Of a DNA stretch of 64,000 bases, positions 124 to 1,515 are shown piece after piece. The stretch's first letter is position 1. Each line of letters begins with the position of its first letter. Made by a program: the position numbers and the translations under genes. The notes under the pieces are model-generated. The model saw nothing but the letters and a program-made list of their open reading frames with translations, ran no database searches and was not told the origin of the DNA. The stretch spans positions 640,001-704,000 of the forward strand of contig CAVSUE010000001.1 of the NCBI GenBank assembly GCA_963731265.1, read 5' to 3'. The stretch is from an uncultured Verrucomicrobiae bacterium (GTDB lineage Bacteria > Chlamydiota > Chlamydiia > Chlamydiales > Rhabdochlamydiaceae).

Positions 124-1352
124 ATATCGGAAAAAATGCCAAGGACGCTTCCCGCTTGATGGCGTTGGCTTCGACAAAAACAAAAAATGATGTTCTTGCC
201 ACTCTCGTTAGGAATTTAAAGACAGATCGTGAAAAGGTCCTCCAAGCAAATGGCCAAGATATTGAGGCGGCAAAAGAAAAAGGATTGAGTTCTGCATTGC
301 TTGAACGCTTATCCTTGCGTTTGGAGTTCATTATTCACGATCTCGAGCAAGTGATCGCGCTTCCGGATCCGATTGGCGAAAGATTTGAAGAGAGAATTTT
401 GCCGAATGGTATGAGCGCTGAAAAGCGTCGTACTCCGATTGGCGTCTTGGGCGTCATCTATGAATCCCGTCCCAACGTCACTCTCGATGTGAGCGCATTG
501 TCGATCAAGTCGGGCAATTGCGCCATTTTGCGTGGGGGATCTGAAGTATTGCAGACAAATCGAATCTTAGTCGCCATGGTCCAGCACTCGCTGACATCGC
601 ATGGCTTGCCCAGCGGCGTCATTCAATGCATCACAGATCCCGACCGTCAACGGGTCTATGAAATGCTCCGTATGGACAGTTACATCGACCTCATCATCCC
701 GCGAGGAGGTGAAGAGTTGCAGAAATTTTGCCGCGAGAACAGCACGATACCCGTGCTTACCGGCGGAGTGGGAATTTGCCATCTTTTTGTCGACGCCTCA
801 GCAAATGTGGAGCGCGCTGTAGAGGTCGTTGTCAATGCAAAGACCAGCAGGCCGACTGTATGCAACGCATTAGACACGCTGCTTGTCCATGCGGAAATCG
901 CGCCCATTTTTATTCCTCAAGCCGTTGCGGCATTGGAAAAAAAAGGGGTCCGGTTTCGCATGGATGCAAAATCGTGGCCGCTTTGCCAAGGCGCTTCTTG
1001 TCAACGCGCCGAACCCGAAGATTTTGAAACGGAATGGATGAGCCTTGTCCTTGGGATCAAGATCGTCGAAAATTTAAGCGAGGCGATCGATCATATTCAG
1101 CAGCATAGCATGGGACACAGCGACGGTATTTTGACGGAAAACGAAAGACACGCAGAGCTTTTTGTCGAGCAAGTCGATTCTTCCGCTGTGTATGTCAATG
1201 CCTCGACCCGTTTTACCGACGGGGGACAGTTGGGGCTTGGCGCGGAGGTGGCCGTTAGCACACAGAAACTACATGCGCGCGGGCCTATTGGGCTTAAGGA
1301 ACTCACTTCGAGCAAATGGGTCGTCAGAGGGAGGTATCATGTTCGGAGTTGA
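120..1352 (+). CDS. proA: gamma-glutamyl phosphate reductase
   Basis: GVIYESRPNVT, LRGGSE, IIPRGG, CNALDTLLVH, VYVNASTRFTDG, STQKLHARGP motifs. Confidence 0.97.
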   Translation: MNIGKNAKDASRLMALASTKTKNDVLATLVRNLKTDREKVLQANGQDIEAAKEKGLSSALLERLSLRLEFIIHDLEQVIALPDPIGERFEERILPNGMSAEKRRTPIGVLGVIYESRPNVTLDVSALSIKSGNCAILRGGSEVLQTNRILVAMVQHSLTSHGLPSGVIQCITDPDRQRVYEMLRMDSYIDLIIPRGGEELQKFCRENSTIPVLTGGVGICHLFVDASANVERAVEVVVNAKTSRPTVCNALDTLLVHAEIAPIFIPQAVAALEKKGVRFRMDAKSWPLCQGASCQRAEPEDFETEWMSLVLGIKIVENLSEAIDHIQQHSMGHSDGILTENERHAELFVEQVDSSAVYVNASTRFTDGGQLGLGAEVAVSTQKLHARGPIGLKELTSSKWVVRGRYHVRS

Positions 1353-1378
1353 ATATAATTGGGGTTCTCATCTATAAT
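1349..1378 (+). promoter_or_regulatory. putative sigma70/sigma66-type promoter
   Basis: TTGAAT-18 nt-TATAAT upstream of the leader peptide and permease. Confidence 0.45.
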
Positions 1379-1390
1379 CCATGGAGATAT

Positions 1391-1456
1391 ATGTTGTATT
1401 TTTTAAGTCATTCTTACTTCTCTCATCATCACCATCATGGCCTCCCCAGAGGCTAA
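1391..1456 (+). CDS. putative histidine-rich leader (attenuator) peptide MLYFLSHSYFSHHHHHGLPRG
   Basis: 21-codon ORF with GGAG 4 nt upstream and 5 consecutive His codons; GCCTC-ccca-GAGGC hairpin then a T-run; 59 nt before the permease start. Confidence 0.6.
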   Translation: MLYFLSHSYFSHHHHHGLPRG

Positions 1457-1515
1457 ATCAATTTTTTTTCTCACATCTGTTTTCGCTTTTAAAAAAAAAT
1501 TAACGATGGTGTTTT

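Follow-up and report, generated by a model that had tools for sequence, protein, structure and literature searches.

A candidate histidine-sensing leader peptide in front of a TyrP-family permease gene of Chlamydiota

What is a short reading frame with five consecutive histidine codons doing directly upstream of a permease gene in a member of the Chlamydiota, and if it senses histidine, how would the signal reach the permease? Chlamydiae are auxotrophs in which few regulators have been described; the locus, located in a 64,000-nucleotide stretch of genomic DNA (the window), provides a concrete candidate in this phylum for a cis-acting leader-peptide attenuator with predicted base pairs. We consider it very likely that the leader is a genuine histidine-responsive regulatory element.

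Anatomy of the leader and its promoter

The leader lies on the plus strand, as do the flanking proA gene (120–1352), whose operon has its own Pro-rich leader left of the window, and the gene for a 399-aa protein of the HAAAP/Trp-Tyr permease family (1516–2715), a candidate histidine importer. The upstream open reading frame (uORF) comprises 21 codons (1391–1456), starts with ATG at 1391, encodes the peptide MLYFLSHSYFSHHHHHGLPRG and ends with TAA at 1454–1456; its five His codons (1424–1438) are the presumed sensor. uORFs with at least three His codons near their end precede only three of the 1853 genomic ORFs of at least 150 aa, and that of the window ranks first with its five. A 7-bp GC hairpin (1438–1455) extends 3′ from the last His codon, with the uORF stop in its 3′ arm. 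It is followed by a U-rich tract (1460–1469), which the model pairs with an A-rich tract at 1492–1501 (a prediction only), and by the permease ribosome-binding site (RBS) region GATGGTG (1505–1511). The run of eight T residues at 1462–1469 is 6 nt past the 7-bp stem and 8 nt past GAGGC.

A predicted sigma-70/sigma-66-type promoter (1349–1378), with TTGAAT at 1349–1354, an 18-nt spacer and TATAAT at 1373–1378, overlaps the proA stop codon and would drive a leader–permease transcript. The promoter boxes and the GGAG element noted in the initial annotation are present, but taken by itself the promoter match does not exceed chance (4 sites versus 2.3 ± 1.6 in shuffled sequences), and GGAG (1383–1386), 4–7 nt past the −10 box, is probably not a full Shine–Dalgarno (SD) sequence for the uORF. 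It probably straddles the transcription start, which would make the uORF near-leaderless, with its ATG about 12 nt past the −10 box. Boxes of the form TTGAC/TTGAA-N16-18-TAnnnT recur 5′ of most of 49 homologous leaders. The predicted distance from −10 box to ATG in relatives is mostly about 5–10 nt or 21–33 nt, and leaders with the longer spacing often bear an SD-like purine stretch.

Distribution and codon-level selection

At E ≤ 1e-95, an ortholog of the permease was found in 45 of the 129 family genomes, and at E ≤ 1e-90 in 116 of 400 genomes of the order; the orthologs form a clade separate from three full-length paralogs in the genome (tree built with FastTree). We examined every family match together with 80 places from other families, leaving out 13 order-wide places, and applied one rule to all loci, namely an ATG-initiated uORF of 8–32 codons ending 5–135 nt upstream of the permease; 12 permease starts were set by hand, and one locus per group was excluded because its upstream sequence was too short. 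This comparison of ortholog upstream regions, proposed as a check in the initial annotation, yielded a uORF with at least two His codons among its last 11 at 44 of the 102 core-clade loci (at least three at 37), and at none of the 30 paralog and 29 basal loci; the other 58 core-clade loci are without such a leader. The leader-bearing loci span three families, and all eight same-genus genomes that have the ortholog also have the leader, so the His5 uORF of the window is real and conserved. Eighty leaderless loci, clade or basal, had sufficient upstream DNA; at 43 of them a neighbouring gene lies within 80 nt and leaves no space for a leader. The deep branches of the FastTree tree are poorly resolved, so a single origin with losses and repeated gain are not distinguished by it. 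A covariance model built from 16 leaders of family f1 found two more His uORFs, of which one precedes a permease start and the other lies at the end of a contig; in an order-wide sample it matched 2 of 150 genomes, both from f1, showing the model to be family-specific, and the leaders of families f43 and f5 were located via the permease protein.

At one locus, L115 (genome G352), a hairpin and a His codon are present 5′ of the permease with the upstream ATG out of frame, so that either the leader has decayed or the assembly is wrong here. Many leaderless genomes carry a pncA-like gene followed by the permease (L038, L061, L063–L065, L091, L100, L107, L110 and L131), and pncB–pncA also lies upstream of proBA in the window genome; judging from gene order, we considered that this neighbourhood may represent synteny rather than a sign of nicotinamide transport.

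Codon-level analysis was carried out on a curated set of 49 leaders from 19 genera in the three families, 45 of them with at least two His codons and four with one His codon and the same hairpin (two anchors were placed by hand). His triplets located 5′ of the terminal run are distributed 64/16/9 over the three frames, or 18/7/4 when one leader per genus is taken, and outside the terminal run the in-frame count of CAY triplets is 4–7 times that of either of the other two frames. Both codons are in use (CAT 140, CAC 39). The leaders differ in length, in the position of the stop and in the C-terminus, yet the His codons remain in frame: the uORF thus holds a run of codons for one amino acid that is under in-frame selection. 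An arrest peptide of the TnaC type was also considered, and was rejected because the C-terminal peptide up to the stop is unconserved, the tails past the last His codon taking 24 forms among the 49 leaders with stops 3–24 nt past that codon.

Pairing with the permease start and the likely switch

Folding of alternative structures, another check proposed in the initial annotation, gave one such structure, a helix between the His-codon stretch and the permease RBS, whereas no antiterminator or other alternative stem was predicted for the leader fold. In the window, CACCATC (1430–1436), an anti-RBS inside the His codons, pairs with GATGGTG (1505–1511) in the RNA fold; its CACC is identical to the CACC of the 16S rRNA 3′ end, which the GGTG of the RBS matches. 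Other genera have different start regions with a corresponding leader sequence at the same position (CTCTCAT/ATGAGAG, TGCATTTCCAT/ATGGAAATGCA and TCCTTCCTAC/GTAGGAAGGA), and in several leaders a CAT-containing stretch pairs with the start codon itself. Across the 19 genera the mean energy of the cognate duplex was −11.7 kcal/mol, compared with −8.1 ± 0.6 kcal/mol for swapped partners, and in each of 200 one-per-genus draws none of 2000 permutations was as strong as the cognate pairing. When either partner window was slid, pairing peaked with the leader window on the last His codon and the other on the start codon. When a ribosome footprint (assumed to reach from −15 to +12 relative to the A site) was modelled on the last His codon, the mean cost of opening the start region fell from 10.9 to 6.3 kcal/mol, whereas a footprint at the uORF start had no effect (10.8 kcal/mol) and one at the stop gave 7.8 kcal/mol; the gain was at least 2 kcal/mol in 37 of the 49 leaders. 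For the window the cost fell from 10.3 to 3.9 kcal/mol on the last His codon (7.6 at the stop), and the RBS is predicted to stay closed (unpaired probability about 0) both in free RNA and when a ribosome is at the stop, whereas a ribosome on any His codon raises that probability to 0.2–0.4.

The sensing codons are thus predicted to pair with the downstream SD or start region, more weakly so in some leaders. Only 29 of the 49 exceed 95% of base shuffles, which control only in part for the readiness of C/U-rich codons to pair with purine-rich SDs and for differences in genome GC, and only 17 of the 49 start regions are in the top 5% when compared with windows of their own coding sequence. Leaders L086, L089, L130 and L160 pair weakly with their own start, and no opening by the footprint is predicted for L028 and L029 in the same genus. 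RNAalifold on the sequence alignments recovered the long-range helix in f43 only, missing it in f1 and giving no structure in f5, with register shifts in the f1 and f5 alignments.

From these predictions, we consider that the leader is probably a histidine-sensing attenuator in which translational sequestration of the permease RBS is the main switch. Transcription from the 1349–1378 promoter would yield an mRNA beginning almost at the uORF. With His-tRNA plentiful, a ribosome would pass the five His codons, terminate in the hairpin and depart, whereupon the freed His-codon stretch could pair with the permease RBS, the short hairpin and the U/A helix forming the other two arms of a three-way junction; with its RBS closed, the permease would go untranslated, and Rho polarity may then cut the transcript. 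With histidine short, the ribosome would wait on a His codon; both the 5′ arm of the hairpin and the anti-RBS would then be covered, opening the permease start. Control by ribosome stalling, as suggested initially, is therefore supported by the predicted opening under a footprint, while the translation of the uORF, the stalling itself and the direction of the regulation are what we infer.

The short hairpin deserves separate consideration, since in a hisL-like mechanism it would be the switch, the GC hairpin and T-run terminating transcription unless a stalled ribosome covers the 5′ arm. Across the leaders it starts at the last His codon, with the stop usually in its loop or 3′ arm. It covaries. 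In f1, 94.6% of cells are paired, two of the seven pairs have changed on both sides, and the covariation score was reached by none of 500 shuffles and is far above that of slid controls; it covaries in f43 as well. This covariation, the U-rich tract that follows and a terminator-like match from a scan are what an intrinsic terminator would predict. However, the hairpin is weak (median −7.8 kcal/mol), and U residues peak 11–16 nt from the last GC pair rather than immediately adjoining it; at least six U in the first 8 nt were seen in only one of the 35 leaders with a scored hairpin, a comparison that is not sharp because gene-end hairpins of the window genome are likewise U-poor (median 4 of 8). 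There is no separate antiterminator, and the hisL covariance model RF00514 matched neither positions 1300–1560 of the window nor six related loci nor the genome, its E. coli control being positive; the Rfam scans gave chance matches or none. From the footprint geometry, moreover, a stop inside the hairpin would mean that a coupled ribosome melts it in fed and starved cells alike. An intrinsic terminator is accordingly very improbable, and the doubt about a classic one that had been voiced at the outset is supported. The working part is most likely the anti-RBS and not the GCCTC/GAGGC hairpin with its T-run, the T-run of the window being able to pair with the downstream A-run, and the short hairpin is probably not the switch.

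Termination by Rho is a more serious contender, although we consider it unlikely as the explanation. Here the C-rich, G-poor leader would be a rut site and the hairpin with its U tract a pause; a stalled ribosome would mask the rut site, and on a released leader Rho would load and terminate transcription before the permease. C exceeds G in all 49 leaders (21% versus 11%, mean length 99 nt), the window genome encodes Rho, and chlamydial Rho causes polarity according to the available part of PMC7755916. A hairpin and a U-rich tract are also common to the Thr, Pro, Phe/Tyr and Leu/Ile leaders described below, including long-gap ones with a weak anti-RBS. Rho does not explain the genus-by-genus co-variation of leader and start site, however, and the C-richness follows from the His, Ser and Phe codons and the anti-SD. 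Both layers may be present, and the tract at 1460–1469 may in addition cause pausing or load Rho. The uORF could, on the other hand, be no sensor at all but a constitutive translational enhancer in which CAT is kept for pairing with ATG/GATG or for the base of the hairpin. CAT is indeed complementary to ATG, and the pairing of CAT stretches with start codons in several leaders would fit, but the in-frame excess of CAY outside the terminal run would not, nor would the occurrence of the same design with Thr (before SDF symporters at 22 of 30 loci), Pro and Phe/Tyr codons before the matching biosynthetic genes and of His runs on his operons; we judge this reading very improbable. Only slightly less improbable is a leader sensing both His and Phe/Tyr in front of a broad aromatic/His carrier. 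A Phe codon lies within eight codons of the anchor in 18 of the 19 genera, where a stalled ribosome would also cover the anti-RBS, and the permease family is known for Tyr/Trp transport. Against this, Phe triplets show no in-frame enrichment (115/82/139 in the 49 leaders), Tyr is only weakly enriched (13/5/7 with one leader per genus; Ser moderately) and is absent from 16 of the 49, and the anti-GGAA sequence needs TTC/TCC codons anyway. The two Tyr–Phe pairs from which aromatic sensing had been surmised occur in the leader of the window alone among the 49, and that suggestion did not hold up.

The permease, related leaders and known systems

If the leader senses histidine, is histidine also what the permease carries? 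The protein belongs to PF03222 (E 8e-91, 305 bits against a cut-off of 22) and falls below the NCBIfam cut-offs for TyrP (189/482 bits), Mtr (141/515), TnaB (95/497) and araaP (287/350). An AF2 model (pLDDT 83) retrieved LAT, BasC, GkApcT and AdiC with Foldseek at TM scores of about 0.65–0.74, placing the modelled protein in the APC/LeuT fold, while a PDB sequence search found no relative. The clade has specific invariant polar residues, E349 and N353 in TM10 and N207 in TM6, at positions that are apolar or Gly in E. coli TyrP, Mtr and TnaB; the TM helices were assigned from the AF2 helices and general knowledge of the LeuT fold. TM6 and TM10 line the substrate site in LeuT-fold carriers. As the three residues also occur in leaderless and basal members, the substrate is possibly common to the whole group.

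HisD was not found in the window genome, which is 96% complete (14 of 14 controls positive), and nine his-operon proteins of a relative had no match there except generic aminotransferases. Only four of the 400 genomes of the order have HisD. Three of these have complete his operons, each preceded by a His-run uORF; in this group, therefore, a His leader is a sign of histidine genes. The remaining genome has a cluster of HisS-like, HisD-like and HisS genes with the orthologous permease as its last gene and no uORF (L178:2049–6861 in G176, encoding a HisS/HisZ-like protein of 338 aa, a divergent HisD-like protein of 382 aa and HisS of 458 aa, with a racemase-like gene nearby). An unrelated SSF symporter, present in 21 of the 129 family genomes, is preceded by a uORF with at least three His codons in 12 of them by script, 11 of which we count as real; symporter and permease occur together in three genomes against 7.3 expected (Fisher p 0.04, which is overstated because related genomes are not independent). 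Import of histidine by the permease, suggested in the initial annotation, thus appears quite likely from five indirect genomic lines: the missing his pathway, the His leaders on his operons, those on the SSF symporter, the hisS/hisD-like cluster and the polar residues.

The his-operon leaders (L175 in G002, L177 in G464 and L176:2710–2799 in G259, purH-led) have a U-rich sequence 3′ of the run and no GC hairpin, and are possibly a Rho-type variant. A second His leader of the window genome (L213, at about 162560–165851 of contig C1) precedes the racemase-like first gene of an SSF operon composed of an Asp/Glu racemase-like gene, a 326-aa gene, the SSF symporter and a D-Ala-D-Ala peptidase-like gene, a gene content that hints at D-His or His-peptide metabolism.

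Among known systems, the leader is in our best reading, by analogy, most like mycobacterial translational attenuation and not like the E. coli hisL terminator. In the available text on the mycobacterial polycysteine sORF attenuator Ms5788A (bioRxiv 10.1101/834739), a short, often leaderless uORF likewise has a run of sensing codons that itself pairs with the downstream SD, a stall frees the SD, and downstream polarity is possible. The two differ in amino acid and phylum (cysteine in Actinomycetota, histidine in Chlamydiota) and in structure, Ms5788A having a long stable stem and the present leader a short duplex of 7–13 bp plus a stop-holding GC hairpin right after the run. This mycobacterial mode of translational attenuation may thus exist in a second phylum and for another amino acid. 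With hisL (RF00514) and the His attenuators predicted in Firmicutes, as far as the consulted portions of PMC9413887 and PMC2965389 go, the leader shares tandem His codons before histidine-related genes. It lacks the terminator/antiterminator pair of hisL, its target is a transporter, and its control is predicted at translation initiation. His attenuators before YuiF-type transporters in gamma-proteobacteria were reportedly predicted by Vitreschak in 2004. For Chlamydiota, a search of titles and the beginnings of abstracts, with few subscription journals covered, returned no His leader and no His transporter, and earlier predictions from comparative genomics may exist.

A ribosome stalled at tandem codons also serves as an amino-acid signal, as described for the WWW motif of C. 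trachomatis YtgR in the accessible part of PMC7755916, where the motif is inside the protein and the effect is trans-acting, in contrast to the compact cis element described here. The same part calls the annotated TrpL atypical and unvalidated, and describes no cis leader that has been validated in C. trachomatis; in the portion of PMC2965389 seen, almost no predicted chlamydial attenuator has a function. The permease shares PF03222 and the APC/LeuT fold with E. coli TyrP, Mtr and TnaB and with the chlamydial TyrP groups A–C of PMC3937554, whose accessible text treats all chlamydial TyrP paralogs as Trp transporters and does not contain the word 'histidine'. Its clade, which may be group B of that study (no fixed neighbourhood), is set apart from the E. 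coli proteins by an identity of only 24–32%, by scores below all four NCBIfam cut-offs and by E349, N353 and N207. Our analysis challenges the assumption that every chlamydial TyrP paralog imports Trp or Tyr, and import of histidine, if confirmed, would extend the HAAAP family to this amino acid.

Leaders of the same design with other codons came to light through weak covariance-model matches and a scan of the window genome. Thr leaders precede SDF symporters at the 22 loci mentioned above, the 30 examined being drawn from 47 genomes. One of them in the window genome (L212, C1 at about 192360–193635) has a conserved ACCGGC..GCCGGT hairpin, which makes the SDF symporter behind it a candidate threonine importer. 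A Pro-run leader with a short hairpin lies before proBA just left of the window (L218, C1 at about 639190–639280). Elsewhere (L205 in G071, L203 in G007, L204 in G093, L206 in G001 and L209 in G004), Lys codons precede the gene for a mitochondrial-carrier-family protein, Leu/Ile/Val codons those for membrane-like proteins, and Phe/Tyr codons chorismate mutase or a truncated gene. Two more leaders are present in the window genome (L214 and L215, C1 at about 366085–366195 and 282215–282290): one is Leu/Ile-rich and precedes an unassigned gene, and the other has a perfect 12-bp anti-RBS and precedes an F-box-like gene located 5′ of an alanine:cation symporter.

In the Thr leaders anti-RBS pairing is moderate: −9.6 versus −7.8 kcal/mol, with a median of 6 and a worst value of 390 in 1000 permutations. 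In the SSF His leaders it does not reach significance (a median of 81 in 1000). The hairpin thus occurs more widely than the anti-RBS, and this leaves room for a Rho- or pause-based layer; the SSF leaders without cognate pairing and the his-operon leaders without a GC hairpin suggest that related leaders may act at transcription. On balance, we lean slightly towards the view that environmental Chlamydiota reuse one modular, ribosome-only design of amino-acid sensor, made up of a codon run (His, Thr, Pro, Phe/Tyr, Lys or Leu/Ile/Val), a short stop-holding hairpin, a U-rich tract and often an anti-RBS, for transporters of four unrelated families and for biosynthetic operons. For orphan SSF, SDF and mitochondrial-carrier-like transporters, the leaders allow substrates to be predicted, and if the modular reading is true they would reveal what many unannotated chlamydial transporters carry. 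It would also follow that a TyrP-family protein has turned histidine importer and that in some lineages an SSF symporter under a like leader replaces it.

Two further features of the window can be mentioned. On its minus strand, positions 6641–8365 contain two tandem paralogous ORFs of 253 and 249 aa that share 86% identity over 329 bases; no Pfam or NCBIfam match was obtained for the one scanned. A 708-bp copy (5917–6624) is 99% identical to 2070–2777, i.e. to the 3′ half of the permease gene and its flank, leaving a second, 5′-truncated permease, and a similar partial copy is found in genome G003.
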